Shown one piece after another: positions 26,625 to 59,285 of a DNA stretch of 64,000 nt (its first letter is position 1; each line of letters starts with the position of its first letter). The position numbers and the translations under genes are program-made. The DNA lies in assembly GCA_034211135.1 (NCBI GenBank), contig JAXHVK010000001.1, positions 9,675 to 73,674 of the forward strand, in the 5' to 3' direction. Source of the stretch: Pseudomonadota bacterium (GTDB lineage Bacteria; Pseudomonadota; Alphaproteobacteria; Sphingomonadales; Sphingomonadaceae). A model generated the notes under the pieces. That model saw only the letters and a list, made by a program, of their open reading frames with translations. It was not told where the DNA came from and searched no databases.

Positions 26625-26668
26625 GGTCTGTCACTCTCGACGACGGCCATTCATCGCTTTCCAGTTTG

Positions 26669-26875: not shown

Positions 26876-27257
26876 GGGACTGTCGGCTCCCCGCCTAGCT
26901 GCGGCACTGAAATATAGCTCGGCCCTATTGAGCATTGGGCGGCACATCACCAGCGACTGCGCGCCGAACACCTGAGCTATTGGATGGCTCTACACTCAGC
27001 GCGCTCGCCGCTCTCGAAAACAATGAACTATGAAGGGAAGAAAATCCCCGAATAACTGCGAAGCCCGAGGAGCGTAGTCCAAGATGAGTACCAATATACT
27101 TCCTACCCACCGGATGCGGCAGTTCGCCTTTTAGCGCTTGGGATGCGCCAATCTCAAAACTAAACGTCCTTAGGCGCCGCTTTAAGCGCATTGGTACGTA
27201 TCTGAGTTTTGCGTTGCCCGGCGCTATGGAGTTCTCTGGGCATCAGATCATTTGCCG

Positions 27258-27740: not shown

Positions 27741-27867
27741 CTTACCTCTATCCACCTGTTGTCAGTTTCAGACACTGAGAAACATAGATGGTGCGCTATT
27801 GCAGCGCTAGGTTGACCAAATTCACCTTCCCGGTGCAAAAAACCGCCAAACCGGCAGGAGAGCGCCC

Positions 27868-28734
27868 ATGACCGATCAACATTTCAACTGGGATGACCTC
27901 CGCATCATTCTGGCGGTAGCGCGATGCGGCTCGGTGCGCAGAGGAGCAGCCCAGTTGACTATGCATCACTCCTCGGTGGTGCGCCGGATCAATGCATTTG
28001 AGGAAAGACATGATGTCAAAGTCTTCGAGCGGCAGAGCTCCGGCTACGTCCCAACTACCAGTGGTGAGGACATCGTAGCTGCCGGCGAGGTGATTGAAGC
28101 AGAGGCGCTGGCTCTGGAACGAAGGACCATGGGTCTTGATGGTCGAGTTAGTGGGAAACTCCGGGTGACACTGCCCACAGCGCTTGCCTCCCATCTTCTG
28201 ATGCCGCAAATCGTCGCGTTCTGTCGGGCCCATAAAGGGATCGAACTGGTCATCAACGCAACGCCGGAGTTGTCTGACCTGACCCGGCGCGAGGCCGATA
28301 TAGCAATCCGCATCACGGCAAGCTCACCGCCTGAGCACTTGATCGGGCGCCGCGCGGGTCGCTGCGCCTTTGCCTATTACGGGTATTCGTCAGGTGACGG
28401 ACATTTGGGGTGGACGGCCGAGGCGCGGTTTCATGGTCTTGGCTCCTCGCGAGAGACGTTGCCATTGGCCATGAACGACGTGCATCTGCACCTCGCAGCG
28501 TCCAAAGCCGGTTACGGGCAGGCCTTGTTGCCGCGCTTCATAGGCGATGCCGAACCGGACCTGCTCTTTCTCGGGCCAGAGGAGACCGGAAAGGCGGTAG
28601 ACATCTGGGTGCTGACCCATTCGGACCTTGCCCGAACGGCGCGTGTCAGAGCCTTCACCGAATTTGCGTTTCAGGCTTTACGGTCTCATCAAAGCGTGCT
28701 GGACCCCGAAAGTTATCAAGTACAGAACGATTGA
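27868..28734 (+). CDS. LysR family regulator
   Basis: NWDDLR...SSVVRRINAFEE helix-turn-helix; RREADIAIR. Confidence 0.9.
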   Translation: MTDQHFNWDDLRIILAVARCGSVRRGAAQLTMHHSSVVRRINAFEERHDVKVFERQSSGYVPTTSGEDIVAAGEVIEAEALALERRTMGLDGRVSGKLRVTLPTALASHLLMPQIVAFCRAHKGIELVINATPELSDLTRREADIAIRITASSPPEHLIGRRAGRCAFAYYGYSSGDGHLGWTAEARFHGLGSSRETLPLAMNDVHLHLAASKAGYGQALLPRFIGDAEPDLLFLGPEETGKAVDIWVLTHSDLARTARVRAFTEFAFQALRSHQSVLDPESYQVQND

Positions 28735-28918
28735 ACACCCACAATGTCGCCTGCCATGTCCAGCCGGGGGTAGCTTCAAAGAAATTTAGTGGGGTCATGC
28801 GCCGACGGACAAAGAGGACCGCCGCAGGCTAAGAAGCGAACTACACTTTCGATACTTTCGATAGTGCCCCGAGTGCGAGCTGCCGATCCAGAGAAACGAA
28901 GTGTTGACGATCTCAAGC

Positions 28919-28932
28919 CGACCTACTAGTAG
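28919..28932. promoter_or_regulatory. Candidate operator 1 of the NemR-like TetR, overlapping its promoter
   Basis: CGACCTACTAGTAG lies within TTGACG-N17-TAGTAG; 12/14 identical to the site at 29521. Confidence 0.6.
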
Positions 28933-28938
28933 ATTGAT

Positions 28939-29499
28939 ATGGATACTCGTGATGCCCTCCTCGACAGTGCCGAGCAGCTCGTCCGCAGTCGCGGGTTTGA
29001 TGCGATCAGTTATGCTGATCTGTCTCACGAGGTCGGTATCCGAAAAGCGAGTATTCATCATCATTTTCCCGCAAAGGCGGATTTGGCGCTTGCGCTGATC
29101 AAACGATATCGAACGCACTTCGACGAGGTGCTGGAACGCATCGCGGATGAAGCGCCGACTGGGGGCGCTCGGCTGGATGGCTATTTGGACGCTTATCGAG
29201 CAGCACTGAAGGGGGGATGCGCTGTCTGCCTCTGTGTCGCTTTGAGCGCCGGGCGTGACAGCTTCAGCGATCCCGTTTTGGCAGAGCTCAACGCGTTTAA
29301 TGAAAGTAGCATGCGCTGGTTGCGCGAGACGTTCGAGGTGGGTCTCGAAGACGGTTCGATCCGCGATGTGGCCACCCCAATCGACGAAGCCGCCGGAGCG
29401 CTCGCCGTTGTGGAGGGCGCGCAGCTTATAGCGCGCGCCGCCGGTGACGTCGCTCACTACGACGCGGCAACGGCGCTGCTCAGAGGCAGGGCCTCCTGA
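28939..29499 (+). CDS. TetR family regulator, NemR-like
   Basis: GFDAISYADLSHEVGIRKASIHHHF helix-turn-helix; Cys cluster GCAVCLC. Confidence 0.88.
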   Translation: MDTRDALLDSAEQLVRSRGFDAISYADLSHEVGIRKASIHHHFPAKADLALALIKRYRTHFDEVLERIADEAPTGGARLDGYLDAYRAALKGGCAVCLCVALSAGRDSFSDPVLAELNAFNESSMRWLRETFEVGLEDGSIRDVATPIDEAAGALAVVEGAQLIARAAGDVAHYDAATALLRGRAS

Positions 29500-29520
29500 G
29501 CTACCATTTATCCACGAAAC

Positions 29521-29534
29521 CTACCTATTAGTAG
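29521..29534. promoter_or_regulatory. Candidate operator 2
   Basis: Pseudo-palindrome CTACCTATTAGTAG just upstream of the SDR ribosome-binding site. Confidence 0.6.
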
Positions 29535-29547
29535 AAAGGCATGTAAA

Positions 29548-30321
29548 ATGACACGACGCTTCGAAAATAAAGTCGGGATCGTCACCGGCGGCGGTTCCGG
29601 GATCGGTCAGGAGGTCGCAAGACGCTTTGTAGCAGAGGGTGGTCTTGTTGTTCTGAACGGACGGGACGAGGAAAAGCTCAAGGCCGCGGCGAGCGAAATC
29701 GGTTCGGACGACCAGATCGCAATCGTCGCTGCCGATGTGGCAGATGTGGCCACAGGAGCGCGGCTCACTGAAGTCGCAACAGAACGTTTCGGTGGCTGCG
29801 ATGTCCTCTTCAACAACGCAGGCGTCTTTGCGCCGAAGCCCTTCGTCGAGCTGACCGAGGCGGACTATGACCGATTTCTGGACATCATTCTAAAGGGCAA
29901 ATTCTTCGTCGCGCAAGCGGCCGCCAAAGAAATGATAAAGCGCGGGGGTGGCGCGATCGTGCAAACGGGTTCGATGTGGGCGATCCAGGCGATCGGCGCG
30001 ACACCGTCGTCGGCCTATTCGGCCGCCAATGCAGGTGTACATCAGCTCGTCAGGAACCTCGCGATCGAACTCGCGGGCGACAAGATCAGAGTGAACGCCG
30101 TCGCGCCCGCCGTCGTGGAGACACCCGTCTACAACACCTTCATGTCTGACGAAGAAGTCGCAGCGACTCTGCCCACTTTCGACGCCTTTCATCCGCTTGG
30201 ACGCAATGGTCAGCCTGCCGACATTGCAGAAGCGATCCTGTTTCTCGCTTCTGAAAGCGCCGGGTGGATCACCGGGCAGGTGCTCTCCGTCGACGGCGGC
30301 GTAACCGCCGGTCGTCAGTAG
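29548..30321 (+). CDS. SDR family oxidoreductase
   Basis: TGGGSGIG, NNAG, YSAAN (N in place of the usual K), RVNAVAP and VDGG. Confidence 0.92.
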   Translation: MTRRFENKVGIVTGGGSGIGQEVARRFVAEGGLVVLNGRDEEKLKAAASEIGSDDQIAIVAADVADVATGARLTEVATERFGGCDVLFNNAGVFAPKPFVELTEADYDRFLDIILKGKFFVAQAAAKEMIKRGGGAIVQTGSMWAIQAIGATPSSAYSAANAGVHQLVRNLAIELAGDKIRVNAVAPAVVETPVYNTFMSDEEVAATLPTFDAFHPLGRNGQPADIAEAILFLASESAGWITGQVLSVDGGVTAGRQ

Positions 30322-30332
30322 GAGGCTCCCCG

Positions 30333-30653
30333 ATGTTTGACATAAAGAACCTCACCCGCCTGAGCGAACTCGGACAGGACGCTGCCGATCCGTGGGCCGC
30401 GTTCAAAGCCTTCGACGAAGCTGCGCTCAAGGACGGAGCGATCCCGAAGAAATACAAGGAGCTCATCGCCCTCGGCGTCGCCCTGACGACACAGTGCGGC
30501 TACTGTGTGGAAGTCCACAGACGCGCTGCGACCGCCGCCGGTGCGACGCCCGAGGAGTTGGCCGAGGCGACCTTTGTCGCCGCGGCGCTTCGGGCTGGCG
30601 CGGCAGTGACGCACGGCACCCATCTACTCGCCTTCAAAGGGACGCAGCCGTGA
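30333..30653 (+). CDS. Carboxymuconolactone decarboxylase / AhpD-like protein
   Basis: KELIALGVALTTQCGYCVEVH (CxxC). Confidence 0.88.
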   Translation: MFDIKNLTRLSELGQDAADPWAAFKAFDEAALKDGAIPKKYKELIALGVALTTQCGYCVEVHRRAATAAGATPEELAEATFVAAALRAGAAVTHGTHLLAFKGTQP

Positions 30654-31360
30654 TGCTCGTCAACGCGGACTTCGACGCCCCCGTCACGATCCGCCCCCAA
30701 GATCGGCGATGGGTGCCCTCGCCGACGGGCGGCGTCGAGCGCTGCATGCTCGACCGAGTGTCGCTCGACGGCGCTGTCGGCGAAGTCGCACGCGCGACTT
30801 CGCTGGTGCGCTTCGCTCCCGGATCGTCCTTTCCCACGCACACCCATGGGGGCGGGGAAGAGTACCTGGTGCTCGACGGAACATTTTCGGACGAGACGGG
30901 CGATTTTCCGACTAGCACCTACGTACGCAACCCGATCGGCACGGCCCATGCGCCACACACGAAGGATGGCTGCACGATCTTCGTGAAGCTGCACCAGTTC
31001 TCCAATGACGACACCTTGGGGTTTGACGTCGACCTGGCAGGCCAACTCGCATCCGCCCCAGAGATCGGCGGCGTCAGAGAGACGCTGCTCCATAGCACCG
31101 AAGACGAGCAGGTGCGGGCGGTCGCTCTCGAAGCAGAGGCCATGCTGGACCACGACGGAGTAGGCGGCGCGGAGCTGCTGGTCCTCGAAGGGGCCCTTGT
31201 CGTCCTGGGCGACGATTGGCCCTCGGGCACCTGGGCGCGCCAGCCGGACGGCGTACCGCTCGTGGCACGGGCGGGACCGGAGGGCGCGACGCTCTGGATC
31301 AAGACTGGGCACCTCACCGCGCAAGCCGTCGCGGCGACTACGCGATCACCCAGTCCGTGA
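30653..31360 (+). CDS. ChrR-like double cupin protein
   Basis: HTHGGGEEYLVLDGTFSDE and HAPHT; TGATG overlap with the upstream gene. Confidence 0.85.
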   Translation: MLVNADFDAPVTIRPQDRRWVPSPTGGVERCMLDRVSLDGAVGEVARATSLVRFAPGSSFPTHTHGGGEEYLVLDGTFSDETGDFPTSTYVRNPIGTAHAPHTKDGCTIFVKLHQFSNDDTLGFDVDLAGQLASAPEIGGVRETLLHSTEDEQVRAVALEAEAMLDHDGVGGAELLVLEGALVVLGDDWPSGTWARQPDGVPLVARAGPEGATLWIKTGHLTAQAVAATTRSPSP

Positions 31361-32418
31361 GCCGGATGGACGTCGCTATCGTCGGAGGCGGGTTGAGCGG
31401 CCTCACGCTCCTCGAGAGGTTGCTCGCAGCGGGCGCCGATGCACACCTTTTCGAGGCGCGGTCGCGCTTCGGCGGGCGAGTTTTGACCGAATGGGTGGAC
31501 GGCGCGCCGCTCGACCTCGGGCCGTCCTGGTTCTGGCCCAGCCAACCACGCATGGCCGCTCTGGTGAGACGTCTGGGTCTAGAAGTGTTCGAGCAGCACG
31601 CCTCCGGCGACCTCATGTTCGAGGATGCTGCCGGCCGACGGCGCGTGCCCGGCATGGCGACGATGGCGGGTGCGCTCCGCGTGCAAGGTGGGATGGGCGC
31701 GATCACTGACGGGATCTCAAGCGCGCTGCCGACCGACCGGTTGCATGCGAACGCCCCGGTCGCATCCATCAGTTCTGACGGCGTTCTGACGTTCACGGAT
31801 GGCACGCGTCACCGCGCCGCCCGGATCGTCCTCGCCCTTCCGCCTAGGATCGCGGCGACCCTTGTCTGCGACCCGCCACTCGATCCGACCATGCGCAGGA
31901 GGATGGACGAGGTGCCGACTTGGATGGCGGGACACGCCAAGTTCGTGGCGAGCTACCAATCGCCCTTCTGGCGAGGGCAAGGCCTGTGTGGCGACGCGAT
32001 TAGCCGGGTGGGACCGCTCGTAGAAATCCACGACGCCTCTCCCTCGGACGGCACGCGGGGTGCGCTGTTCGGCTTCGTGGGCTTGAATGCCACCTCGCGA
32101 ACGGGCCGCGGCCCGGAGATCGAGCGCGCGGCCATCGAGCAGCTCACGCGGCTTTTCGGTACCGAGGCGACCACGCCGCTGGGAATGCGCATGGTCGATT
32201 GGTCGAACGAGAGGGCGACCGCGATGGCGGCCGACCGCAGCATACCCGCGACGCATCCGCGATACCGTCGGCTTCCGGCACCTGTAGGGGCGTGGGAGGA
32301 CCGGCTCTTGTTCGCGGGCTCGGAACAGGCGGAGACGAATGGCGGCTTGCTTGAAGGCGCTCTAGAGGCGACCGACGCAGCGATGCGCGAGCTGACGACG
32401 ACGGGATCGTTCGCTTGA
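31357..32418 (+). CDS. Flavin monoamine oxidase family protein
   Basis: GGGLSG, EARSRFGGR, DLGPSWFW, LLFAGSE and GLLEGAL. Confidence 0.88.
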   Translation: MSRMDVAIVGGGLSGLTLLERLLAAGADAHLFEARSRFGGRVLTEWVDGAPLDLGPSWFWPSQPRMAALVRRLGLEVFEQHASGDLMFEDAAGRRRVPGMATMAGALRVQGGMGAITDGISSALPTDRLHANAPVASISSDGVLTFTDGTRHRAARIVLALPPRIAATLVCDPPLDPTMRRRMDEVPTWMAGHAKFVASYQSPFWRGQGLCGDAISRVGPLVEIHDASPSDGTRGALFGFVGLNATSRTGRGPEIERAAIEQLTRLFGTEATTPLGMRMVDWSNERATAMAADRSIPATHPRYRRLPAPVGAWEDRLLFAGSEQAETNGGLLEGALEATDAAMRELTTTGSFA

Positions 32419-32492
32419 TCCGGCGCGGCGCTTCAAGGGGAACTGCGGATGACGGCCTCCGCGCGATCCTGCTCGGTTCGTCAGCTTTGAGG

Positions 32493-33455
32493 ATGAATAA
32501 GAAAAGCAACTATCACGACTTAGTGGTCCCTGCGTCAGGCATTGATCTGGCGGGCGTCGAAATCTCGCAGCTTATCAGCTTCCTCACTGTCGCAGAGGTG
32601 GGCGGCTTCCGCCGAGCTGCACAGAGGCTGGGCGTCGGACAACCGGCGGTCAGTCGGCGGGTGCAACGCCTCGAAGACCATCTTGGAGTCTCGCTTTTCG
32701 AACGTCGGGCCAGCGGTGCGCAACTGACGTCAGCGGGTAAACGCTTTTCCGCGCTTGGCCGCGCGGTCCTATCCGATCTGGCCAGTGCAGTGGACACCGC
32801 GAGGGCCAGTGGCGTTGCCGGAAATGGAGATCTAACTATCGGATTGATCGCCTCTTTATCGCATGGCCCTTTTCGTGCGCTCATCAATCGGTTCAGAGTG
32901 GAGCATGAAAACGTCGATCTTTACCTGACCGAGGCAAACAGAGGCGAACTCCTTTCGTTGCTCAGCCACCGTCGCGTGGACGCGGTGCTGGCATCGGGCG
33001 AGCCGAGCCCGGAAGACGGTGACGGCCTGCTTTTTGCAGATGAAAAGATCTTCCTCGCAGTCGCTTCCGACCACCATTGGGCCAAGTTGACTCGGCTCCG
33101 CTGGGACGATGTCCGGGAAGAGACATTCGTCGTCAGCAACTGCGAGCCCGGTCAGGAAATTCACGACTACATCTTACGGCGCTTAAGCGGCTTAGGCCGG
33201 ACTGTGAATTTCCGACGTCACCGACTTGGAAGAGAAGGCGTTATGAACTTGGTCGGTCTGGGTTTCGGCGTCAGCCTCGTCGCGGACCATTGGCGCGGCG
33301 TTCGGTATCCGAACGTCACCTTCGTTCCGATCGGCGACGAAGACGAGACGATCCCGTTTTCGCTCATCTGGCGTCCCGAAAACGACAACCCTGCACTCCG
33401 CCGGTTCATCTCTCTGGCGCGGATTGAGGCGCAGAATAACGGCGTTCTTTCCTGA
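32493..33455 (+). CDS. LysR family regulator at the ICE backbone edge
   Basis: GGFRRAAQRLGVGQPAVSRRVQRLE; converges on DUF2274, as recalled for related ICEs. Confidence 0.88.
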   Translation: MNKKSNYHDLVVPASGIDLAGVEISQLISFLTVAEVGGFRRAAQRLGVGQPAVSRRVQRLEDHLGVSLFERRASGAQLTSAGKRFSALGRAVLSDLASAVDTARASGVAGNGDLTIGLIASLSHGPFRALINRFRVEHENVDLYLTEANRGELLSLLSHRRVDAVLASGEPSPEDGDGLLFADEKIFLAVASDHHWAKLTRLRWDDVREETFVVSNCEPGQEIHDYILRRLSGLGRTVNFRRHRLGREGVMNLVGLGFGVSLVADHWRGVRYPNVTFVPIGDEDETIPFSLIWRPENDNPALRRFISLARIEAQNNGVLS

Positions 33456-48517: not shown

Positions 48518-49201
48518 TCATCGCTGATCCCCGGTTCCATGTGGCGGGAATAGGCTGTCCGAAGCTCCGGATGTGTGCGGAGGATAAGCATCGGCGCCGC
48601 TGCCTGGGTGCGTTTCGTCAGCAGCCGTCTGCCGATCAGTATGTGCGGCGAATAGCGGCGCTGTGCGCCAGTCCACGGTCAGAAACGCACTCTGTTCATG
48701 CCGTTCCGCTGCAACCGATGCGCCGATGAGCGGCGCCAGCGCCGCAACATAATCGCGGGTTTCTCTGGGTAGCTGGCGACCTGTGGCTAGATGCTCGGCA
48801 TAGCGTGTCGGTCCCGCATTGTAGGCGGCGAGGAAGCCCGGCGATCCGAAGCGGTCATGCAGTTCACGGAGATAAGCGGCGCCCGCCAGAATGTTGTCGC
48901 GAGGATCGAACGGATCGCGCCCCAGACCGTAACGCGCGCGCAGCTCATCCCAGGTGTCGGGCATGATCTGCATCAGCCCCATCGCGCCTTTTTCGCTGAC
49001 GGCGCGCACGTCGCCGGCGCTTTCCTCGCGCATAACGGCGAGGATCCCATGCGCGGGGACGCCGAAGCGCTGCGCAGCTTCGGCGATAAAGGCAGCATAG
49101 GAATTGCCGCCTTGTTCCGTCCTGGAGGATGCGGTTTCTGCTGATACGGCGTGAGAGACAACCACGCCGGAGAGCAGACCGCAGAGGAGGAACTTCGCCA
49201 T
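48518..49201 (-). CDS. Lytic transglycosylase
   Basis: ES...GAMGLMQIMP and AAYNAGP. Confidence 0.9.
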   Translation of the reverse strand: MAKFLLCGLLSGVVVSHAVSAETASSRTEQGGNSYAAFIAEAAQRFGVPAHGILAVMREESAGDVRAVSEKGAMGLMQIMPDTWDELRARYGLGRDPFDPRDNILAGAAYLRELHDRFGSPGFLAAYNAGPTRYAEHLATGRQLPRETRDYVAALAPLIGASVAAERHEQSAFLTVDWRTAPLFAAHTDRQTAADETHPGSGADAYPPHTSGASDSLFPPHGTGDQR

Positions 49202-49223
49202 AATCGCGCAGCGCCGAGACGGT

Positions 49224-49571
49224 CTAGCCGCGCTCATCGCGTTTCTCGGGGCGCTTTGCAGGGCGGTTCCAATAGAGCGCCCAATTTCCGTCCTCGGCGT
49301 CGGTCTTGAAGAGATTGGCGCGGATCGGAAACGCAAAGGTCGGGTCGTCGATCTGCAAAGAGATGTATTCACCGGCTTTCTCGCCGGTGCGTTTCCAGCC
49401 GGCGCCGATTTCCGGCCCGTCATCATCGCCGTGATGGACGCGATAGTCGGGTGCGTTCTCGCTGTCTGACGGTGTTGCCGGAACGAGGGTGATTTCACGG
49501 TAGAGAATGAGCGTGTGAAGCCGACCGGTGAAGCCGGTTTCTGTGCGCGTGAATTGACCGATCTGAGCCAT
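49224..49571 (-). CDS. DUF736 domain protein
   Basis: APDYRV...IGAGWKR...YISLQIDDP. Confidence 0.88.
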   Translation of the reverse strand: MAQIGQFTRTETGFTGRLHTLILYREITLVPATPSDSENAPDYRVHHGDDDGPEIGAGWKRTGEKAGEYISLQIDDPTFAFPIRANLFKTDAEDGNWALYWNRPAKRPEKRDERG

Positions 49572-49584
49572 GGGGAAGTTCCTT

Positions 49585-50163
49585 TCATTTGCGGTCGGAA
49601 GATTTTTGGGAGGCCCCGGCGTCGCGATCGGCGCGCCAGACATACCGGCCGTCGCCGTCTTCATCGGTGAGGATCGGAACGGCGCGTCCGATCACGGCGT
49701 CCGCCGGGAGCGCGCCGAAATAGCGACCATCGAGACTGTCGGGATGGCTGGGATTCAGGAGGAAGAGCTCTGTTCTGGCGACGATGTGGCAGCCCTGCCA
49801 AACGGGCAGGTCGCGTCCGAAGCGGTCGCTCGGCCTAGCCTGCGCCAGGGTGATGTCGTCGACAGTGACAGCGGCGCCATCGCGGCAGACACGCTGTCCT
49901 GGAAGCGCAGCGATATGCTTGAGGAGCGGCACGCCTTCAGGCAGATAGCCGCGCTCGTCGAGATAGATCGCAAGCGATTTCGGCGGATCGACGACGACCA
50001 GATCGCCTACGGCAAGATCGTCTTCCGACGCGACGGCGTAGAGTCCAATGGGCGCGCTCGCGGACGCGTTCCAGATCAGCTTTGGGCTCACATGGACGAA
50101 GGCCAGTCCGCCGATCGCGAGCACGGAGAAATAGGTCGTCATGACGTAGCCGAACCGGGTCAT
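49585..50163 (-). CDS. traF: TraF / S26 signal peptidase-like pilin maturase
   Basis: WNASASAPIGLY, LLKHIAALPG and SLDGRYFG. Confidence 0.9.
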   Translation of the reverse strand: MTRFGYVMTTYFSVLAIGGLAFVHVSPKLIWNASASAPIGLYAVASEDDLAVGDLVVVDPPKSLAIYLDERGYLPEGVPLLKHIAALPGQRVCRDGAAVTVDDITLAQARPSDRFGRDLPVWQGCHIVARTELFLLNPSHPDSLDGRYFGALPADAVIGRAVPILTDEDGDGRYVWRADRDAGASQKSSDRK

Positions 50164-50666
50164 GACGCGCTCCCCGCCGATGTGGCGCGCTGTGTCTTTA
50201 GAGCGGGCGGACAAGTTTGGCGCAGGAGCCAGGCGCGATGCTGAACGGCTGTGTAGAAGCGCGGCTCCAAGCCTGCAGACAGCCTGTTGTGAACGTGGCG
50301 CCAATAGTCCGGCACGGCGTCAGCGGGGTCGATGTCGAGCGCTTCGATCGCATCGGCGAACTGAAGAACCCGTTCGACTTTGGGCCAGCCGGAGAGACGC
50401 AACAGACTGTCGCCGCCGGGTGTCACATGCGGCACGGTCGCATAGGGCTCACCTGCTCTGGGCGCGCGCAGGATGTCGATCCGGCTTTCCGCCGTACCGA
50501 AATCATTTGCCTGCCAGCGGACGAAGGCGAAGACGGCGCCGGGATCGAATGCGACGGTGCTGCGGCTACGGCTCTGGATCGTTGTCCGCACGATCCGGCC
50601 GAAGCGAATCCAGTGCTCGATCTGCTTCTCGATCCAGACGAGCTCGACAATGGCGCCGCCGCTCAT
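50160..50666 (-). CDS. DUF2840 domain protein
   Basis: VELVWIEKQIEHWIRFG and FVRWQANDFGT. Confidence 0.88.
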   Translation of the reverse strand: MSGGAIVELVWIEKQIEHWIRFGRIVRTTIQSRSRSTVAFDPGAVFAFVRWQANDFGTAESRIDILRAPRAGEPYATVPHVTPGGDSLLRLSGWPKVERVLQFADAIEALDIDPADAVPDYWRHVHNRLSAGLEPRFYTAVQHRAWLLRQTCPPALKTQRATSAGSAS

Positions 50667-50947
50667 GAGCGGGCCTTCCGTGCATAGGCGGGCGAGATCG
50701 CTGCATGCCGCTTGGCGGGCAGCACCTCGTCGCCCGTGTCGTCCGAGGTCGAGTTCTTCTCTCCCCGGCTAACCCAGGCTTGCAAATCCTCGATCGCGTA
50801 GACGACACGCCCGCCGATCTTCGAGTAGCGCGGTCCCGTGCCGTAGGTGCGATGTTTTTCGAGCGTCCGCCCCGAAAGGCCGAGAAAACGGGCCGCTTCA
50901 GGCGTTCGTAAATAGCGTGGGGGAAGTCCGGCATTGGGATCGGGCAT
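50663..50947 (-). CDS. rdfS: AlpA/MerR-like excisionase (RdfS homolog)
   Basis: YLRTPEAARFLGLSGRTLEKHRTYGTGP; first gene of the DUF2840-traF operon. Confidence 0.88.
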   Translation of the reverse strand: MPDPNAGLPPRYLRTPEAARFLGLSGRTLEKHRTYGTGPRYSKIGGRVVYAIEDLQAWVSRGEKNSTSDDTGDEVLPAKRHAAISPAYARKARS

Positions 50948-51034
50948 AGGTCGCGTCTCCGGTTAGGCCATCCCGCTGCGGGAAGCGCGGGACTGTCGGA
51001 GACGAGAAAAGCGTAAGATGCGCGCCGGGAGGGA

Positions 51035-51062
51035 TGACGATCAGAGCGCGGCGAAAACGTCA
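51035..51062. promoter_or_regulatory. Candidate FseA-type activator box at the rdfS promoter
   Basis: TGACGA-N16-ACGTCA (5/6 inverted), about 90 bp upstream of the rdfS start. Confidence 0.45.
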
Positions 51063-51103
51063 CCCCCAAATGATCGGCGGTATCGGCGTTTCGTCAGGCT
51101 CGA

Positions 51104-51967
51104 TCAGAACGGAATTTCGTCGTCCAGATCCGCGACTGGTGTCTGACGGGAAGCTTCGATGCGCTCGATAAACGCAAGCGATGCGAGGACGCTGTCTATG
51201 ATGAATTGCGCTTCCGAGACGTCGAGGAGCTCATTGTCATGGGCGAAAGAGCGCTTGTTGCGCGCCTGGTTCAGACCGTCGAAGAGCTTGTGCTGAACGC
51301 GGAGTGTCGGCAGGGCGAACTCGCTGACGGCGCCTTCATCACGTAAGGCCTTGCCGTATGCGCCGAATATGGCGTCGAGCGGAGTCTTTGCATCGACGAC
51401 CTGGTCCCGCGATGCCAGCAGATCGCGGAAGCGTTTGACGCAATAGGTATGCACACGATCCAGTGCGACATCCGGTTTTTCCGCTACAAGATCGGCGGCG
51501 ATGGACGCACGTAGTTTGGGCAGCGTGGTGTCGCGCGAGAAGTCCTTGAACGCGTCGTCGAGGTTCAGCGTAGACGCATTTTCAAGCTCATTCGTGAACT
51601 GCTCAAGCCATGCTTTCAGGCGCTCTTCTTTCGCGGCGTCCGCATCCACATAGCCATCGAGACTGCAACGATACGCCCACAAGACGCGAAGAACCTGAGC
51701 GACGAGGCGCGGTTCAGCGACCTCGACAAAGCCTCTGAGTGTTTTGCCCTTGCTCGCGCCTTCGACCTGGAAGCGTTCTTGGAATATCTGGATGTCGAAA
51801 TTTTCCTCAAACCACTCGGCCATGGTTCGGTCGGAAAAGTCGAGAACGTAGCCGCCGCCACTATGAAATATCTGGTCAAAGACAGCTCGTTGCTGAGACG
51901 GCAGCCGGCGCGTGCGTCCGATAATCCTGGGAAGGTTGGAATCAAGGTCTTGCGAAGGCTGAGTCAT
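51104..51967 (-). CDS. Abortive infection family protein (AbiJ-like N-terminus, Abi_C-like C-terminus)
   Basis: GGYVLDFSDRT N-terminus; LDRVHTY and RNKRSFAHDN (RxxxxxxH, HEPN-like). Confidence 0.7.
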   Translation of the reverse strand: MTQPSQDLDSNLPRIIGRTRRLPSQQRAVFDQIFHSGGGYVLDFSDRTMAEWFEENFDIQIFQERFQVEGASKGKTLRGFVEVAEPRLVAQVLRVLWAYRCSLDGYVDADAAKEERLKAWLEQFTNELENASTLNLDDAFKDFSRDTTLPKLRASIAADLVAEKPDVALDRVHTYCVKRFRDLLASRDQVVDAKTPLDAIFGAYGKALRDEGAVSEFALPTLRVQHKLFDGLNQARNKRSFAHDNELLDVSEAQFIIDSVLASLAFIERIEASRQTPVADLDDEIPF

Positions 51968-52025
51968 CCGATGAACATACCGAAAACCTTCCGTGGCGCA
52001 CAGTCACTGTGAAGTATTGGCGGCC

Positions 52026-52740
52026 TCAGCGGCCTTTGCCCTGAAGAAGTTGGCGATAACCGCGATCGATCATCATCCGCCCGTAAGTGGCCAGCCGCGC
52101 AACCTGCGCCTTGAGCGAACTGGTCTTTCACGGTTCGGCGGCGACGCGATCAGCGCCGAAGAAGGCCGTGGCAATGGCACGATAGCTGGCGCCGCTCTGG
52201 CGTCCGTCGATCGTGCGGAGGGCGCGTTTCAGTCGCTCGCGCCGATGTGGCGTAATCGGCGGATCTGAGTCGCGCTCGATAAGTTGGCGATACAGTCTGT
52301 CAGCGGCAGCAAGCCGAACGGGCCAGGCGTCATCGAGAGGAAGCAGGAGACCTACAGGCCGATCATCGACCAGATTACCGACAAGATTGACGCCGTTCTC
52401 CAATCGCATCCACGACAGTCCGTCGTCGCCCGTTTCGCGATCTGTGATGCTGTCGGGAGGAATGGCGGCGGTCAGGCCGATGTCGGGCAGAGACGCGATC
52501 AGGTGAACCACTGCGGGTGCAGCGGAAGGCAGCCAGAAGACCGGGGCGCCAAGTGCGTTGAGCTCCGGGTCTACCGGGAAATCGCAACCCCCAATCGGCT
52601 GGAGCGCCGCCGCCCTCCTGCATCATGTCGTAGTCTTTGCGATAATGCGTGTTCCGCCGAAGGCACTCCCAGGCAAGCCCCGAGATGTCGAGCTGATCGA
52701 AATGATCATATTGGTGATCGTCGCGCCAGTCGGCCGGCAT
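52026..52740 (-). pseudogene. fseA: FseA-like activator (DUF6499 + DUF2285 joined by a +1 frameshift), with a premature stop at 52128-52130
   Basis: AWECLRRN...WGLRF, then after the +1 shift PVDP...LRTIDG...ASYRAIA, then TGA, then in-frame KTSSL...GYRQLL. Confidence 0.8.
52576..52596 (-). other. +1 programmed ribosomal frameshift site
   Basis: GAT.TGG.GGG.TTG.CGA.TTT.CCC matches the recalled msi172-msi171 consensus SRV.TGG.GGN.NTN.NNN.TTT.CSY at all but one position. Confidence 0.8.
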
Positions 52741-52869
52741 GGCGAACTTCTCCCAATCACACGCCGAAATGTTGGACGGCGTCAGCTAGTTGGGATGTTT
52801 CGCCGTAAATCGGCGGGTGCATAGTACGGGCACAAGCATCGTGCGATGCGTACAGTGCATCGCTACCGC

Positions 52870-53145
52870 CTATTCCAGGGGAAGACCGTTCCTGAGAATG
52901 TCCCGATATCCTTGTTCGGTCATCCAACGCGCGCGGGACAGGTGGCTGTCGTGCACACGGCGGGCCCGCTCCGGCTCCGCCCTCGCGTCGATGCCAAGCA
53001 AGACCGGCGACACCTCTTCCAGCGATGCTCCGGCGTCATTGGCGTCGAGAAGTCGCATGTAAAGCTTGAGGTGATCGCGATCATAGACGGTCACGGCCGC
53101 ATCGTTCGGCGGGGCATCTGCGATCGTAAGCGGGGTGGCGGGCAT
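52870..53145 (-). CDS. qseM: QseM-like antiactivator (stand-alone DUF2285), 91 aa
   Basis: YD..H...YMRLLDA...S..E....LGID...EPERAR....SHL.RA.WM...GY closely matches Mesorhizobium QseM as recalled. Confidence 0.85.
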   Translation of the reverse strand: MPATPLTIADAPPNDAAVTVYDRDHLKLYMRLLDANDAGASLEEVSPVLLGIDARAEPERARRVHDSHLSRARWMTEQGYRDILRNGLPLE

Positions 53146-53268
53146 CGGCGTCCTGGCGAGTGTGGCACAATTGTTAATGAACCGGAAACCATGACGCATG
53201 CAAGCGCCGGCCGGTTGAAATGCCACCGGTGCGACGACTGCGGTGCGCTTCGGTCGGCATGTCGTCCG

Positions 53269-53297
53269 CGTATTATAATACGTCGCATCAAAATACG
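53269..53297. promoter_or_regulatory. Tandem C-protein-type operators (OL/OR)
   Basis: Perfect palindrome CGTATTATAATACG (53269-53282) and degenerate copy CGCATCAAAATACG (53284-53297), offset by 15 bp. Confidence 0.7.
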
Positions 53298-53318
53298 CGA
53301 TCCGCATTTTACTTGCGG

Positions 53319-53537
53319 ATGGATATTCGTGACGTTTTTGGAAAGAATCTCAAGCACTACCGGATGAAAATCGGCATCAGCCAGGACGCGCTGGCGGCCA
53401 AAATGGGCGTTGATCGCGCCCATGTGAGTTCGATGGAGCGCGGCCAGCAGAACGTGACCATCATCACCCTTTGGCATGCGGCGCTCGCGCTTGACGTGAA
53501 GCCGGCTGCACTTCTCGACGATCAGGCTCAGGATTAG
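53319..53537 (+). CDS. qseC: XRE-family controller protein (QseC homolog)
   Basis: FGKNLKHYR...SQDALA...DRAHVSSMERGQQNVT; divergent from qseM; no Shine-Dalgarno sequence seen. Confidence 0.8.
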   Translation: MDIRDVFGKNLKHYRMKIGISQDALAAKMGVDRAHVSSMERGQQNVTIITLWHAALALDVKPAALLDDQAQD

Positions 53538-53578
53538 AATTAGAGGCGCCCCGCCCGCTGAGCGGGGCGCCGGAAGCG

Positions 53579-53911
53579 TCAGTCGCCGTTCTGGCGGCGG
53601 GACCGCGACCAGATGAGACTGAAGCTCTCTTCGCCCTCGATGACGGTGTCGTCGAAGAGGTTGGCGTAGATCGGCGCGGTGAAGCTTGGATCGTCGAGCT
53701 TGAGGCTCAGATAGTCGCGACCTTCGTTCGAGCGTTTGGACCAAGCGGCGCCGATTTCGACGCGGCCTACGAAGACGCGGTGCGAGGGAGCGTTGTCGTT
53801 AGATGACCCCTCTTCAGGGACGATGCGGACGTTCTTCGCCTGAACATTCAGGGTGACGATCTCGCCGACGAACTCGTTGCCGGTCTTCTTGAAGGTTCCG
53901 ATGGTGGCCAT
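53579..53911 (-). CDS. DUF736 domain protein (second paralog)
   Basis: MATIGTF...APSHRV...[10 protein letters not shown]...[11 protein letters not shown]. Confidence 0.9.
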
Positions 53912-54529
53912 GTCAGTTCTCCTTTTGGCTTTCGAGCCCGCGCCCATCGCGGCCTCGATGGCGATCGGCACGGCCGGGGCGACCGCCGACGCAGTCCTTG
54001 CGACCCGCAGCGCAAGCGGAGGACAGCGGAGACGGAGTTTCTTGTTCCGCGAGGAATGGGCGAAGCCCAGGGGACGAAAGTCCGGCTCCGCCGTTGCGGC
54101 CAAGGGGGTCGAGGCATCAGCCGATCCCGGCCAGATCAGTCCATGAGAGGCTGAGACGGGCGTGGGGGAGGTTCAGGAGACCTGTAGAAAGTCGCCTGCG
54201 AATACCGATAAACGCCGGCAATATGTTTTGAAGGGTGGTCGCCCGCATTGGGCCAAGAGAAGAATGACGTCATCCGGGAGAGGGCAGATCGACAAGGCTG
54301 TGACCTGTCGTCGTCCGACGCGGCGCCCGATCGGCCCCCGCTGCCAGCGCACGAATTCGGCCACAGGACTCTCTAGCGAACCCGGTGCACGCGCGGCCAA
54401 TTTCAGTCGATAAGCTGACAACTGGACGGAGCGGTTGGGAAAGGAGCTATGCGGACAAAACCGCCAACCGGACGGCACCAATGAATGTCCTCTTCGCGGC
54501 AAAATAGAATTTGTATCTGAGGCAACAAA

Positions 54530-54556
54530 TGCCCGGCGACCATTGGCCGCCGGGCA
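54530..54556 (-). terminator. Probable terminator of the tandem ABM gene
   Basis: GCCCGGCG-N9-CGCCGGGC hairpin followed on the minus strand by ATTTGTT. Confidence 0.5.
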
Positions 54557-54577
54557 CTCGATAAAGGCACTCGTTAC

Positions 54578-55303
54578 TTACTTGATTGCCAGAATGTCGA
54601 AGTTACTGACGTTGGCGACCACGCCGTCGTCCCAACCGCCCTCGACCAGAACCGACGCTTTTTCGTTCAGAAGCCCGGCAACCTGCCCAGCAAAGTGTGC
54701 CTCGCGACCTGAGTTGTCGGCGAAGATGTCAAAGATTGCGAAGTTGTTTTCGTCAATCTGCAAAGCCGCCCAGAACAGCGTCTTTGGCTCTGTATCGGCC
54801 ACGATCGGGCCAGCCGCCGTCAACAATGCAGCCAGATTATCGGCCTGTCCTGGAGCCGCTTCGAGCCGGATATATGTTGCAGTTGTGGCACTGTAGAGAT
54901 CAACCGGTGCTTTGGCTGACAGAACGTCCGAGTTGTTGATGTTGGCGACAACTCCAGCATCCCAACCGCCGTCTACTAATGTGTCTGCGTTTCCATTCAG
55001 TGCGCCTGCGACAGCACCTGAAAAATGGGCATTGCGGGCAGCTTCATCCTCAAAGACATCGAAGATCGCTAGGCTGTCGCCTGCTTGCAAAGCAAACCAG
55101 AGTTTGGTGCCGGGCTCGGTTTCTGCGACCAGTGGGGCAGCACCTGCAAGAAACTCGGCAAATGCGTCGGTCTGGCCGGATGCGGCGGGCATTTCGATAA
55201 AGCTGGCAGTGTGATCGTTCATGACGTTTTCCTGTGCGTTTGCGGAAGTTGTTGCAGAAATCAAAGCGAGTGCTGAGATGGTGTGAAGGATTATGGATTT
55301 CAT
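54578..55303 (-). CDS. Secreted protein with two tandem ABM/Dabb-like domains
   Basis: Signal peptide (ANA-Q); two ~100-aa repeats, each with EP..T..W.ALQ...AIFD.F...R.AHF.G.VAG.L. Confidence 0.75.
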   Translation of the reverse strand: MKSIILHTISALALISATTSANAQENVMNDHTASFIEMPAASGQTDAFAEFLAGAAPLVAETEPGTKLWFALQAGDSLAIFDVFEDEAARNAHFSGAVAGALNGNADTLVDGGWDAGVVANINNSDVLSAKAPVDLYSATTATYIRLEAAPGQADNLAALLTAAGPIVADTEPKTLFWAALQIDENNFAIFDIFADNSGREAHFAGQVAGLLNEKASVLVEGGWDDGVVANVSNFDILAIK

Positions 55304-55453
55304 TGGTCTTCTCCTGAGTTTGGGTTCATCGTTCGGTTTCGATGAGCCCTTGTCCCATGTGCCACCCTCATGACTCCAATCTTGAAGTCCTATACTTCGA
55401 TAGGCATTGACTATGATTGATGCGCGGTTGAGGTTGCGTATGAGGAGGACGTC

Positions 55454-56320
55454 ATGGAAATGAATCAGGTCCGCTACTTTTTGGCGGTTTGCGAGCATCG
55501 CAATTTCACCCATGCCGCGAGTGCTTCCAACGTATCGCAACCCTCGCTTACGGCGGCGATCAAAAAACTTGAGGACGAATTGGGCGATGCATTGTTCATC
55601 CGAGATCGTGCTGGCTGCCGCCTGACAGCGCTTGGTAAGCTTATGCAGCCAAGATTGGAACGTATGCAGTCTGAGGCAAGGGAGGCAAAAGCCGAGGCTG
55701 TCCGACATACGCGGCTAGAAAGAGTCCCGATTAGCATCGGAATAGGTGAAACGATAGGCCATGCCAAAGTCTCGGAGGCCGTCGAACGGTTTCGTCAACG
55801 CGTGCCGCAAGCCGAGATAGAACTGATCGTCGACGCAAACGACACTTTGTTGGCGGGACTTCGCGAGGGAGAATTTGATCTCGTGATATCAACAGTAGAG
55901 GTCAGTGAGGAGCTTTATCGCATAGACCCACTCTATCAAGAGGCCTATCGTGTGGTTGTGGCGAAAGGTCATCCCCTGTCTGAGTTGCCGGCCGTATCGC
56001 TTGCTGATTTGGCAGATACAACCATGTTGGATCGCCCAAATTGTGAAATGCGAGAGGCATTGCATGGGGCGTGCACGGACCATGGTCATACGCTCTATGC
56101 GGCATACCGGTCAAACCGCGTGGACTGGTTGGTCGAGCTCGCGCGGCGAGGCTCGGGGGCCGTTATCCTTCCCGAAACGTCGATCCCTGACCATGACAAT
56201 CTCGTCTCACTTCCGATAGCCGACATGGAAATTGCAAGAGATGTGGCAGCGCTTCGTTTCCGCCATCAGGCTTCTCGCTCAGAAACAAACGAACTGGTGC
56301 GGGAGTTTTCGCGGAACTGA
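55454..56320 (+). CDS. LysR family regulator
   Basis: MEMNQVRYF...NFTHAA...SQPSLTAAIKKLEDELG. Confidence 0.92.
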   Translation: MEMNQVRYFLAVCEHRNFTHAASASNVSQPSLTAAIKKLEDELGDALFIRDRAGCRLTALGKLMQPRLERMQSEAREAKAEAVRHTRLERVPISIGIGETIGHAKVSEAVERFRQRVPQAEIELIVDANDTLLAGLREGEFDLVISTVEVSEELYRIDPLYQEAYRVVVAKGHPLSELPAVSLADLADTTMLDRPNCEMREALHGACTDHGHTLYAAYRSNRVDWLVELARRGSGAVILPETSIPDHDNLVSLPIADMEIARDVAALRFRHQASRSETNELVREFSRN

Positions 56321-56413
56321 GCTTTGTAAAGAGCGGACATTGGCGCTTCGTGCAGCATCGGTCAAAGTGGGCTCGAAGTATGAATTCGCTGCGATCGCTT
56401 CGAACGGCCGCTT

Positions 56414-56839
56414 TCAAACCGGCTGAGGTGATTCTGGCGCTGCAAGGGACGCAATGCGCAGCCATGCAGTGACACCGACAATGATCGCGCCGACGCTGGC
56501 GAAGACGAGCGTCAAAGTCTCACCTGCGCCGCCGACTTGTGAGAGACCTTTCACTGCATGGAACCCAGCAAGACCTGCCGGCAAGGCGTAAAGTGCCCCG
56601 AGCGCAAGGCGGATGATCGGTGAGCGGATCGTTGCAAAGGCCACCTGCCCGAGAACAAGAGCTGCGGCGCCGACAAACAGTGCGACAACAATGGAGCCGA
56701 TCAGTCCCGCATCGCTTTCAAACGCATAGTAGCCGACGGTGATGGCGACGAAGAAGGGAAGCGCATATACGGCCAAGCTGAACAGAAGCCAGCAGAGAAA
56801 ACCGAGGCCGATGACACTGAGCAATGCGGACAGGAACAT
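56414..56839 (-). CDS. Conserved ICE membrane protein
   Basis: Hydrophobic protein with LAVYALPFF and ALPAGLAG motifs. Confidence 0.7.
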   Translation of the reverse strand: MFLSALLSVIGLGFLCWLLFSLAVYALPFFVAITVGYYAFESDAGLIGSIVVALFVGAAALVLGQVAFATIRSPIIRLALGALYALPAGLAGFHAVKGLSQVGGAGETLTLVFASVGAIIVGVTAWLRIASLAAPESPQPV

Positions 56840-56956
56840 GGCGGTCTCCTTGTCGAGGGAGCGCCTCCACCAACCGCCACGGCGCTTCTGGCAGTATAGC
56901 GAAGAGTAACGCGTGCCGGAACCGTCCGGCGCGCATCAGGTGATGCATATGGCGCA

Positions 56957-57895
56957 TCACGTCGCCTGCGTTGAACTTTGCCGGGACCGGAAGTCGTAAA
57001 GCGGCACGCCGAGCTTGCGGGCCTTGTCGGCGAGATTGTCGGTGATCCCGGACCCCGGAAAGAGGATGAGTCCGATGGGCATGGCCTCGAGAAGCACGTC
57101 GTTGCGCTTGAACGGTGCGGCCTTGCCGTGGCGTTTCCAGTCCGGCTTGAAGACGATTTGCTGGCATTTGCGGGCGTCGGCCCAGCAGGCGGCGATCTTC
57201 TCGGCGCCTTTGGGCGATCCGCCATGCAGCAGCACCATGTCGGCGTGTTTGGCCATCACTCGGTCGAGCGCCTTCCAGATGGTCCGATGATCGGTGACGT
57301 CGAGCCCGCCAGAGAATGCGACGCGTGGCCCGGTTGGCAGAAGTGGTTCGATCTCCGCGCGCCGCTTCGCCGTCAGATAGTCGCGGCTGTCGATCATGGA
57401 GGCCGTCAGCGTGCGGTGGCTGATCCGCGATCCCGAGTGCGGACGCCAGGTCTGGCCAATATGGGTCTCGAAGTGATCAGCGGCGATGTCGCGCATGAGT
57501 TCGTAGGCGTTGCGCCGCTCGATCAGCGTGACGCCCTGCGCCGTCAGGGCTTCGAGTTCGACAGAGCGTACTTCGGAACCGTCCTGTTCGCGCTGCGCGC
57601 GTTTCTGGGCCTGTTCGTTGTCGTCGAGGTCGCGATCGACACGGGCCGCTGTGCGATGAAACAGGTTCGTCACGGACCAAAAAAGGTCTTCGAGGTCCGG
57701 TTCCAGCCGCGTGTCGCCCAGCGTCGCGGCGAGCGCGTCGAAGATGTCCGTCATCGCGCCCTGGAGGGCGTCGATTTCGGGTAAAGGTCTCGAATCGGGC
57801 TCGTCGGCGAAAGGCCGATAGCCGTAGAGTTGCAATTCTTCGAGCACGGCGGCGGTTGCGGAACTGGCGTGTCGTTCGATGGTCTCGGCTGTCAT
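56957..57895 (-). CDS. DUF2493 (SLOG-like) domain protein
   Basis: EELQLYGYRP; LLHGGSPKGAEKIAACWA; FPGSGIT. Confidence 0.85.
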   Translation of the reverse strand: MTAETIERHASSATAAVLEELQLYGYRPFADEPDSRPLPEIDALQGAMTDIFDALAATLGDTRLEPDLEDLFWSVTNLFHRTAARVDRDLDDNEQAQKRAQREQDGSEVRSVELEALTAQGVTLIERRNAYELMRDIAADHFETHIGQTWRPHSGSRISHRTLTASMIDSRDYLTAKRRAEIEPLLPTGPRVAFSGGLDVTDHRTIWKALDRVMAKHADMVLLHGGSPKGAEKIAACWADARKCQQIVFKPDWKRHGKAAPFKRNDVLLEAMPIGLILFPGSGITDNLADKARKLGVPLYDFRSRQSSTQAT

Positions 57896-58244
57896 GGGAT
57901 CGTCTCCTGTTCGGCGTGGGCCGCGCCTCTCGCGGCCTTCCCGAGCGACGGAAAAGCGGGGGCTGGCCGGGACTGCACCGCCGTTCCCGGCGGCCGGAGC
58001 CACAGGCGGAGGACGGCGGAGGCGGCGCTCTTTTGCTTCGCGATGCAAAGCCGGGCGCACACATGGTCTGTTTTGCCACGCGGAACGCGTGGGTGGGCCC
58101 GGCGGCGGAAAAGAGCGCCGCCGCAGCCGTTGCCTGCCGGGCCGGGCTCCGCTCCGTCTCGCTCCTCCCGGAAGGCCGAAGGCGTGACTCTCGGGCAAGG
58201 AGACGACGATGTAGGCGAGAGCCGCGACAGGCCTGCTCAGCTGC

Positions 58245-59285
58245 TCAGGGGTCGCAGGAAAGCAGCCGCGATAGATCAGCCGTGGCCAATTGCGGGCCGA
58301 GATGCGCCCGCAGGTCTTCTCGTCCGAGCTTGCGGAGATCTTCGTTGAAATCATCGCCAAGGGGAGCAAGCCGGATCGTCTCGATGCCGACGGCATCTGC
58401 GCGTTCCGTCAGTTTGTCAGCCGCCATGGCGCCTGCTTCGTCGGCGTCGGCCGCGATATAGAGACGCCGAAGCCCTGCCGGCAGGATCAGCGCGGCGAGA
58501 TGGTTGGCCGATAACGCGGCGATGACCGGCAGGTCGGGTAACGCCATGCGCAGTGACAGCGTGCTTTCAAGCCCTTCGCCGGCAGTGAGAATGTCGGTCG
58601 CGATGCCGACCCGCACACCGTGCCCGAGCAGATGCCCCATCGCCTTGCGCGGTGGGTCAAGCGGGGCCTTGCGAGCCGTCGCCGGATCGAGCCAGGTGCG
58701 GTGGACGCCGGTGAGATTGCCTTGTCCGTCCGTGACCTTCGCGAGCAATGCGGGCCAAGTCTCCGACGGTGCATCTTTCGGCTGACCTTCACGCCAATAG
58801 TAGCAGCACGGATGAAATCGCAGCGCTGGCGCGCCGCCAAGCCCGGAAAGACCGCGCCGATGCAGATAGCGCTCGGCAAGCGTTCTACCGACAGGTCTTC
58901 CCATGGCGAAGAGGCGCCGTGCGGCCTCCGGCGATCCGGTGGGTGCGACCACTCGTTCGCGAGTTGGCGGTTCAGGTCGTGGGAGGCTCAGGAAGATCCT
59001 CGCCTCATCAAGCGTCTCGCCGAAGGTGCGAAGTTGCCGGGCGCCTGCAATGAGATCTAGCAGGTCACCATGTTCGCCTGTGGCGGCGTCTGTCCATTTG
59101 CCGGCAGCGCCAGGACCGTGGGTTGGTCCAGTGAGGCGAACGTAAAGACTGCGACCGGACGTGTTCTCGATGTCGCCGACGATCCAGTAGCGGCCCTGCT
59201 TGCGGCCGTTGGAGAGGTAATGGCGACAAACGGCCTCCGCCTCGCGGCCGAGCCGCTGCGCGATGTCGGATGCAGCGCTGTTCAT
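58245..59285 (-). CDS. Toprim domain protein (primase-like)
   Basis: GKWTDAATGEHGDLLDL, GEGLES and IAADAD. Confidence 0.88.
   Translation of the reverse strand: MNSAASDIAQRLGREAEAVCRHYLSNGRKQGRYWIVGDIENTSGRSLYVRLTGPTHGPGAAGKWTDAATGEHGDLLDLIAGARQLRTFGETLDEARIFLSLPRPEPPTRERVVAPTGSPEAARRLFAMGRPVGRTLAERYLHRRGLSGLGGAPALRFHPCCYYWREGQPKDAPSETWPALLAKVTDGQGNLTGVHRTWLDPATARKAPLDPPRKAMGHLLGHGVRVGIATDILTAGEGLESTLSLRMALPDLPVIAALSANHLAALILPAGLRRLYIAADADEAGAMAADKLTERADAVGIETIRLAPLGDDFNEDLRKLGREDLRAHLGPQLATADLSRLLSCDP

Follow-up and report, generated by a model that had tools for sequence, protein, structure and literature searches.

The genes qseM, qseC and fseA in the stretch of DNA analyzed here (64,000 nucleotides, referred to below as the window) very likely belong to the transfer-control module of an ICEMlSymR7A-family ICE, in a form that lacks genes for quorum sensing. 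Judging by gene content, the quorum-independent reading is correct for this element, and it is typical of the family. Our finding mainly confirms what is known: versions without quorum sensing are common in marine Alphaproteobacteria and have already been published. In this copy the switch appears intact, while its output is probably disabled by a dead activator. A conserved box upstream of fseA is the single new lead, and also the only one toward a signal other than TraR/AHL. The genes of the module and the structure between two of them are as follows.

50663-50947, minus strand: rdfS excisionase gene (HTH_17), with an FseA-box-like repeat upstream.
52026-52740, minus strand: fseA, a DUF6499 frame starting at 52740 with a +1 frameshift into a DUF2285 frame; the normal stop is at 52026-52028.
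52870-53145, minus strand: qseM, ATG at 53145, encoding a 91-aa lone-DUF2285 antiactivator, with an AGGAC Shine-Dalgarno sequence at 53150-53154.
53319-53537, plus strand: qseC, encoding a 72-aa controller (C-protein)-type HTH_3 regulator, without a Shine-Dalgarno sequence.
53545-53571, no strand: GC-rich hairpin with a stem of 10 bp, located where the genes qseC and DUF736 converge.
53579-53914, minus strand: DUF736 gene (Pfam E value of 9e-35), oriented convergently to qseC in almost every related locus.

As the preliminary description had it, qseM and qseC are divergent: the two open reading frames, running from 53145 down to 52870 and from 53319 to 53537, match PF10074 and HTH_3, respectively, with 173 bp between them. 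Its placement of qseM directly upstream of fseA was equally borne out, given that the DUF6499 frame begins at 52740 on the same strand, leaving a gap of 129 bp, and one RNA contig spans qseM, the gap and into fseA. The same-strand order 3' of qseM continues with an Abi_C gene after fseA, the rdfS-like HTH_17 gene, DUF2840 and a TraF-type S26 peptidase. Upstream of rdfS, an alignment of 61 distinct upstream regions displayed a conserved FseA-box-like repeat, GGGGTGACG-N16-TCGTCATCC. The hairpin at 53545-53571, read from the sequence, is likely a two-way terminator; the consensus terminator scan did not flag it because it has no T run. A search of positions 50000 to 58500 against Rfam gave no match.

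The ICE measures 57.5 kb, from about 22010, where a tRNA-Arg is split, to about 79560, where the other tRNA half is found (window coordinates), and lies wholly within contig C1 of a 3.1-Mb MAG that is 92% complete. The RodA protein of the host shares 80% identity with its counterpart from an uncultured Erythrobacter genome, 51 to 56% with those of other sphingomonads, and 40 to 44% with that of Hyphomonas. By this marker, the host is an Erythrobacter-like sphingomonad, in agreement with the non-rhizobial host described previously. Hyphomonas, in which one locus (L004) encodes a 100% identical QseC, was ruled out as the host by its RodA identity and also by the chromosomal DNA, which gave only short matches of 70 to 77%. 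The ICE also carries four LysR-type regulator genes, all of them within cargo regions (window positions 25491-33455 and 55454-56320). One LysR gene, together with an ABM-domain gene, is inserted between the DUF736 gene and a membrane-protein gene that adjoin each other in canonical loci such as L026. Elsewhere in the genome there are two more DUF2285 proteins, with open frames of ca. 280 aa (C23:16297-16587 and C84:11085-11324), which may be FseA-like regulators of other elements.

All three regulators could be recognized from their domains. QseM matched DUF2285 (Pfam PF10074) with an E value of 4.6e-9 and the structure of QseM from R7A (PDB 7UQT) with an E value of 3.7e-18 over 77 residues. 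It is a lone DUF2285 domain without DUF6499, acidic and homologous to QseM, with a net charge of -4 versus +8 for the DUF2285 region of FseA. The alignment to 7UQT showed that the R-x-x-W and GY motifs, whose residues are critical for antiactivation by QseM (PMC10359603), are kept. FseA has both of its domains (Pfam PF20109 and PF10074), the DUF6499 part with the motif LAWECLRRN. QseC matched Pfam HTH_3 (E value of 1.1e-11) and, among PDB sequences, C.AhdI (4.7e-11) and C.BclI (1.6e-9) better than QseC from R7A (9XZ9; only 1.5e-4). Therefore, as far as these matches tell, it is of another specificity type than the R7A protein, which fits the report that at least six QseC/C-protein families adjoin qseM on alphaproteobacterial ICEs (PMC8789080). 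The single HTH_3 protein encoded on contig C1 is QseC itself; a second C-protein was not found there, and hence there is no qseC2 and the word "minimal" used in the preliminary description is fair.

Between the two divergent genes, the following features were recognized.

53267-53299, no strand: double-box operator of 33 bp, consisting of OL, a central T at 53283, OR and outer CGCG flanks.
53174-53219, minus strand: conserved blocks in the qseM 5' region, from a MAFFT alignment of 70 distinct intergenic regions.

The two 14-bp operators offset by 15 bp that had been noted earlier are indeed there. OL (CGTATTATAATACG, 53269-53282) is a perfect palindrome and OR (CGCATCAAAATACG, 53284-53297) differs at 3 of 14 positions, with a centre-to-centre offset of 15 bp. 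They were the only two matches in the 64 kb when up to three mismatches were allowed (0.43 expected), and together with the CGCG flanks and the central T they make up one 33-bp near-palindrome. In 80 out of 80 related loci, the spacing between the box and the qseC start is the same, OR being separated from the start codon by 21 bp in all of them, while the flanks and the sequence further upstream are unconserved. Where the recognition helix of QseC changes from DRAHVSS to DRAYVSG, the boxes shift to GTGTATTATAACAC and GCGATATAATGCAC. This co-variation supports QseC as the putative binder of the boxes, and it amounts to a single evolutionary event.

The promoters were harder to place, and a consensus scan of the region found no full sigma-70 promoter. 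OL holds TATAAT on both strands, and its variants keep only the copy reading toward qseM, which points to a leftward -10 element that is likely located within OL. The conserved blocks, which read TTCAACC ... TTGCAT-N18-CATTAA on the sense strand and precede the qseM ATG by 25 to 75 nt, may be a proximal qseM promoter or the site of another protein. An alternative candidate for the promoter of qseM is the conserved proximal element at 53174-53203; at 64 bp or more from the operators, it would not fit simple occlusion by QseC. On the opposite side, the ATG of qseC lacks a preceding GGAG or AGGA, as the preliminary description had observed, and the sequence CGGATGGAT is fixed in all loci. The qseC mRNA is probably leaderless. 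RNA contigs from two studies begin 8 to 15 nt inside qseC (at 53327 and 53334) and the one over qseM ends at 53160, with none over the intergenic 53161-53326, a weak hint only, as these are metatranscriptome assemblies, given with neither strand nor true ends, which could derive from DNA.

Extrapolating from the work on Mesorhizobium and on C proteins, QseC dimers would fill the perfect OL first and then, cooperatively, the weaker OR. Bound QseC would stimulate a weak and probably leaderless qseC promoter, whose -35 would fall in OR, and at the same time shut the leftward qseM promoter, for which the TATAAT inside OL is the likely -10. Two cell states would result. With QseC low and QseM high, FseA would be sequestered and the ICE silent, while with QseC high and QseM low, FseA would be free and rdfS, by analogy the output of the switch, would be turned on, leading to excision and transfer of the ICE. 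Above this switch, a TraR/AHL layer is missing. The transcription of fseA would come from qseM read-through, from a promoter of its own with a GATGC-N7-GCATC box, or from both. Since qseM and fseA are in tandem here, repression of the qseM promoter could also lower fseA transcription, and the logic may differ from that of R7A.

Quorum-sensing genes are missing well beyond the window. The preliminary description had found no traR or traI within it and had named a cognate pair elsewhere on the element among the findings that would refute its reading; our profile searches for Autoind_synth, Autoind_bind and GerE (PF00765, PF03472 and PF00196) gave no match on contig C1, which contains the whole ICE. 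With neither LuxI/LuxR-type domains nor a second C-protein on this contig, the minimal quorum-independent version proposed before stands. LuxI was absent from the 92%-complete genome altogether, and the same PF00765 search had matches in 15 of 17 related genera, which served as the positive control. Within the host genus, LuxI appeared in 1 of 24 genomes, and among carriers of the same module, 19 of 50 genomes had no LuxI anywhere. Two candidates for an ICE-borne LuxI in relatives were discarded. The strongest, in a Roseovarius relative at 38 kb from the locus and part of the only nearby luxRI pair that we inspected, sits beside trigger factor and SufBD and is therefore chromosomal, and the one in a Mesorhizobium relative is on another contig.

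The module is far from exclusive to this genome. In a species-representative collection (one genome per species), we found 158 relatives of this QseC, of which 80 loci were fetched. The order rdfS-fseA-qseM/qseC-DUF736 was maintained in 78 to 79 of these 80 loci, which cover five orders, with qseM and fseA in tandem in 78. Carriers include Hyphomonas, Maricaulis, roseobacters, sphingomonads, Acetobacteraceae and Hyphomicrobiales. Cultured strains are among them, such as Psychromarinibacter sediminicola C21-152 (QseC 99%), Hyphomonas pacifica T16B2 and Maricaulis maris DSM 4734. Near-identical DNA (positions 52100-53950) was present in at least 14 DNA runs from at least 12 studies, mostly marine metagenomes and one activated sludge; the near-identical runs include two labelled with a single organism, and parts of the module DNA also appeared in four metatranscriptome runs. 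With at least 158 genomes and near-identical copies across orders, the design without quorum sensing is therefore widespread, and the near-identity points to recent spread. The novelty implied in the preliminary description does not hold: QseM and FseA were described in 2015 on numerous ICEs without quorum-sensing genes (PMC4755241), QseC families beside qseM are also on record (PMC8789080), and FseA homologues number 4,709 (PMC10359603). In the literature that we searched, there was no experimental study of any member without quorum sensing. As was known before, the QseC/QseM/FseA switch is an ICE-wide device, to which quorum sensing has been added in rhizobial symbiosis islands.

One of these relatives bears on how the module moves. 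Positions 51.4 to 54.4 kb are about 100% identical to the ICE in the Hyphomonas MAG (L004), while identity drops to 80 to 90% across the transfer genes of that element. Taken as far as the adjacent cargo, the stretch from 51400 to 56374 has 99.6 to 100% identity, versus 80 to 90% in the relaxase, coupling and traF region. From these identities, there is a recent recombination breakpoint near 51.4 kb, and backbones have therefore recently swapped the regulatory module, something that has also been reported for ICEs of Mesorhizobium.

This copy also has a defect. A three-frame comparison with L004, L005, L007 and L018 revealed a premature TGA in fseA at 52128-52130, where the near-identical L004 has TGG, and the genome search returned one TGA inside the fseA match. 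The change cuts the last 33 residues of the DNA-binding DUF2285 domain of FseA, including its GY turn, so that what the switch controls in this genome is probably a dead activator. The preliminary description did not connect the switch with this stop. Whether the whole module is a relic in this genome, with a truncated FseA, no switching on of rdfS and a QseC/QseM pair without function here, is in our estimate an even bet. The replaced TGG is conserved, and FseA of R7A loses its activity when a W at another place in the domain is replaced by A, and also when contacts of the C-terminal helix are altered (PMC10359603), all of which argues for a loss. However, apart from this codon the module has 100% identity to a copy from another order, and the stop-codon change must therefore be very recent. 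It may also be confined to this MAG, represent a minority variant or stem from an error of the assembly, and read-through or suppression is conceivable. In any case, a relic in one genome is silent on the family as a whole, for which the quorum-independent switch remains our reading.

As to what could set such a switch in motion, the gap between qseM and fseA contains a box that recurs once more in the window.

52836-52863, minus strand: site A, GCGATGC-N7-GCATCGC-AC-GATGC, located between qseM and fseA, ca. 105 nt before the start codon of fseA.
56942-56958, minus strand: site B, GTGATGC-N7-GCATCAC-CT-GATGC, overlapping the stop of a YAcAr/DUF2493 gene.

Site B lies about 100 nt upstream of a gene for a 141-aa membrane protein. 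The exact core occurs twice in the window, each time in the same three-part arrangement, versus about 0.06 expected, and in the 80 loci (1.47 Mb) there were more than 100 exact cores against 1.4 expected. The general form is YGATGC-N7-GCATCR-N2-4-GATGC. Genome-wide, the box was mildly enriched (12 versus 3.6 expected), and the third half-site was found only at the two ICE sites. An exact core precedes fseA in 43 of the 80 loci. Relative to qseC, the boxes of L004 to L060 are at about -475 and at +1.7 to +8 kb, while in 12 distant loci (L064 and L071 to L083) the box is at -109, within the qseM-qseC spacer; in L038, where an insertion parts fseA from qseM, it stays with fseA. The spacer is always 7, the core is invariant and there are no compensatory changes, a pattern that is expected of a protein site rather than of an RNA stem. 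According to the alignment of rdfS upstream regions, the box is distinct from the FseA box.

A possible, if not the favored, explanation is that a transcription factor acts on the fseA box (together with a second promoter in the backbone) in the place that TraR and the tra box have in R7A, so that transfer would answer a signal and not noise alone. The excess of exact cores, the constant spacer, the way in which the box follows fseA in L038 or is relocated to -109 in the 12 distant loci, and its distinctness from the FseA box all speak for such an upstream input. With TACTAT as the putative -10, moreover, the centre of the palindrome would fall near -40, a class II activator position, although this promoter assignment is itself provisional. 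Against the proposal, the box is degenerate or missing before fseA in about 25 loci, and it might just as well fold into a stem within the transcript of qseM and fseA (-14.6 kcal/mol, z of -2.25); flanks of the wobble type and of the C-A type are both present, and the RNA reading gave no strand signal. Nor did we find a candidate binder. A second HTH_3 protein was ruled out, as QseC is the only one on the ICE, and the four LysR genes are cargo. DUF736 was set aside on the grounds of its model, a predicted beta barrel without a DNA-binding fold (best VIA Z of 6.4, Foldseek E value of 0.028). In Sulfitobacter, what looked like a site beside luxI proved to lie on another contig than that gene.

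The DUF736 protein is conserved at 72 to 94% identity across loci where QseM is about 50% identical. Its predicted barrel has eight strands (pLDDT of 85) and no clear PDB match, and neither DUF736 nor DUF2840 had a sequence match in the PDB. A second DUF736-like segment (37% identity; 49251-49571) forms the N-terminal end of a 356-aa ORF (48518-49588) downstream of traF.

If the upstream input is real, the fseA box marks a transcription factor, and hence a signal, that feeds the QseC/QseM switch in place of TraR/AHL. The tandem qseM-fseA arrangement with its conserved box is, in this sense, a concrete handle on how transfer is triggered without TraR.

A further repeat is located at the start of qseC.

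53300-53320, no strand: inverted repeat ATCCGCA-N7-TGCGGAT, which extends over the -10 region as far as the second base of the qseC ATG (53319-53321).

The overlap with the start codon is as the preliminary description reported. We consider it rather unlikely that the repeat is functional, be it as a hairpin hiding the AUG in a leadered transcript, as a terminator for antisense transcription from DUF736 or as the site of a further protein. Its 7-bp arms would form a hairpin of -13 kcal/mol and it was flagged as terminator-like on the minus strand; inverted repeats of at least 5 bp occurred at the qseC start in 17 of 42 distinct related promoters, versus about 10% in shuffles, with two unrelated versions of the arms (ATCCGC...GCGGAT and TCCATCC-N3-GGATGGA). 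However, the repeat is lacking in the whole roseobacter group, the constancy of its right arm (CGGATGG) across all loci has other causes, and compensatory changes were not seen. The U tract begins 6 nt past the stem, the z value is only about -2, and a leaderless mRNA could not form the hairpin. From this distribution, the repeat over the ATG is lineage-specific.

Finally, quorum sensing acting in trans, by which neighbours' AHLs and a chromosomal orphan LuxR would act on the ICE under the restraint of QseM, is very improbable: the genome does encode one orphan LuxR-type protein (Autoind_bind and GerE) beside rodA (contig C20:7199-7789, chromosomal), and QseM of R7A binds TraR (PMC4755241), but the sequences preceding fseA, qseM and qseC showed no CTG-N10-CAG palindrome of the lux-box or tra-box kind, LuxI occurs in just that one genome of the host genus, and the module resides in hosts of five orders, with 19 of the 50 carriers devoid of LuxI.

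The quorum-independent switch can be set beside three known systems. The first is the QseC-QseM-FseA-RdfS control of ICEMlSymR7A in Mesorhizobium japonicum R7A (PMC4755241, PMC8789080 and PMC10359603). The two elements share the lone-DUF2285 antiactivator (a QseM homologue, with the E value of 3.7e-18 given above), a divergently transcribed, C-protein-like regulator whose gene lacks a Shine-Dalgarno sequence and is accompanied by two neighbouring operators, an FseA composed of DUF6499 and DUF2285 through a +1 frameshift, and an FseA-box-like repeat before rdfS-traF. Transfer control in ICEMlSymR7A has reportedly been worked out by Ramsay in 2013 and 2015. Unlike our ICE, that element has traR, traI1, traI2 and a tra box. 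It also has qseC2, operators of the qseC2 type (ATCC-N7-GGAT) and an antisense-qseC promoter, none of which is found here, where the 3' side of qseC has the hairpin and the convergent DUF736 gene and no second C-protein arrangement. In R7A, qseM is convergent with fseA, and transcription that starts at the promoter of qseM continues into fseA in the antisense direction, whereas in the tandem arrangement described here the read-through from qseM is sense. The GATGC-N7-GCATC box, located before fseA where R7A has the tra box, is a feature of the element analyzed here, and the truncation of FseA is a feature of this copy.

The second comparison is with the C proteins C.AhdI, C.BclI, C.Esp1396I and C.PvuII, some of which are the best PDB sequence matches of this QseC. 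As in those systems, a pair of palindromic boxes with an offset of 15 bp flanks a central T, the outer flanks are complementary, the distal box is strong and the proximal one weak (the strengths are predicted here), and the logic is that of an autoregulatory switch. The C gene is leaderless in them, as qseC probably is. The operator architecture matches the C.PvuII-like double-box class, whose motifs are associated with leaderless C genes (PMC2632904). In contrast to restriction-modification C systems, no restriction or methylase gene is nearby and the divergent partner is qseM; the neighbours of qseC are qseM, fseA, rdfS and DUF736 in 78 to 79 of the 80 loci, not an endonuclease or methyltransferase. 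The C-boxes of restriction-modification systems have the form GACT...AGTC, from which the box found here, GTATTATAATAC, differs.

The third and closest comparison is with the QseM/FseA ICEs of Alphaproteobacteria that lack quorum sensing. The element described here is exactly of that class and differs from it in nothing of substance.
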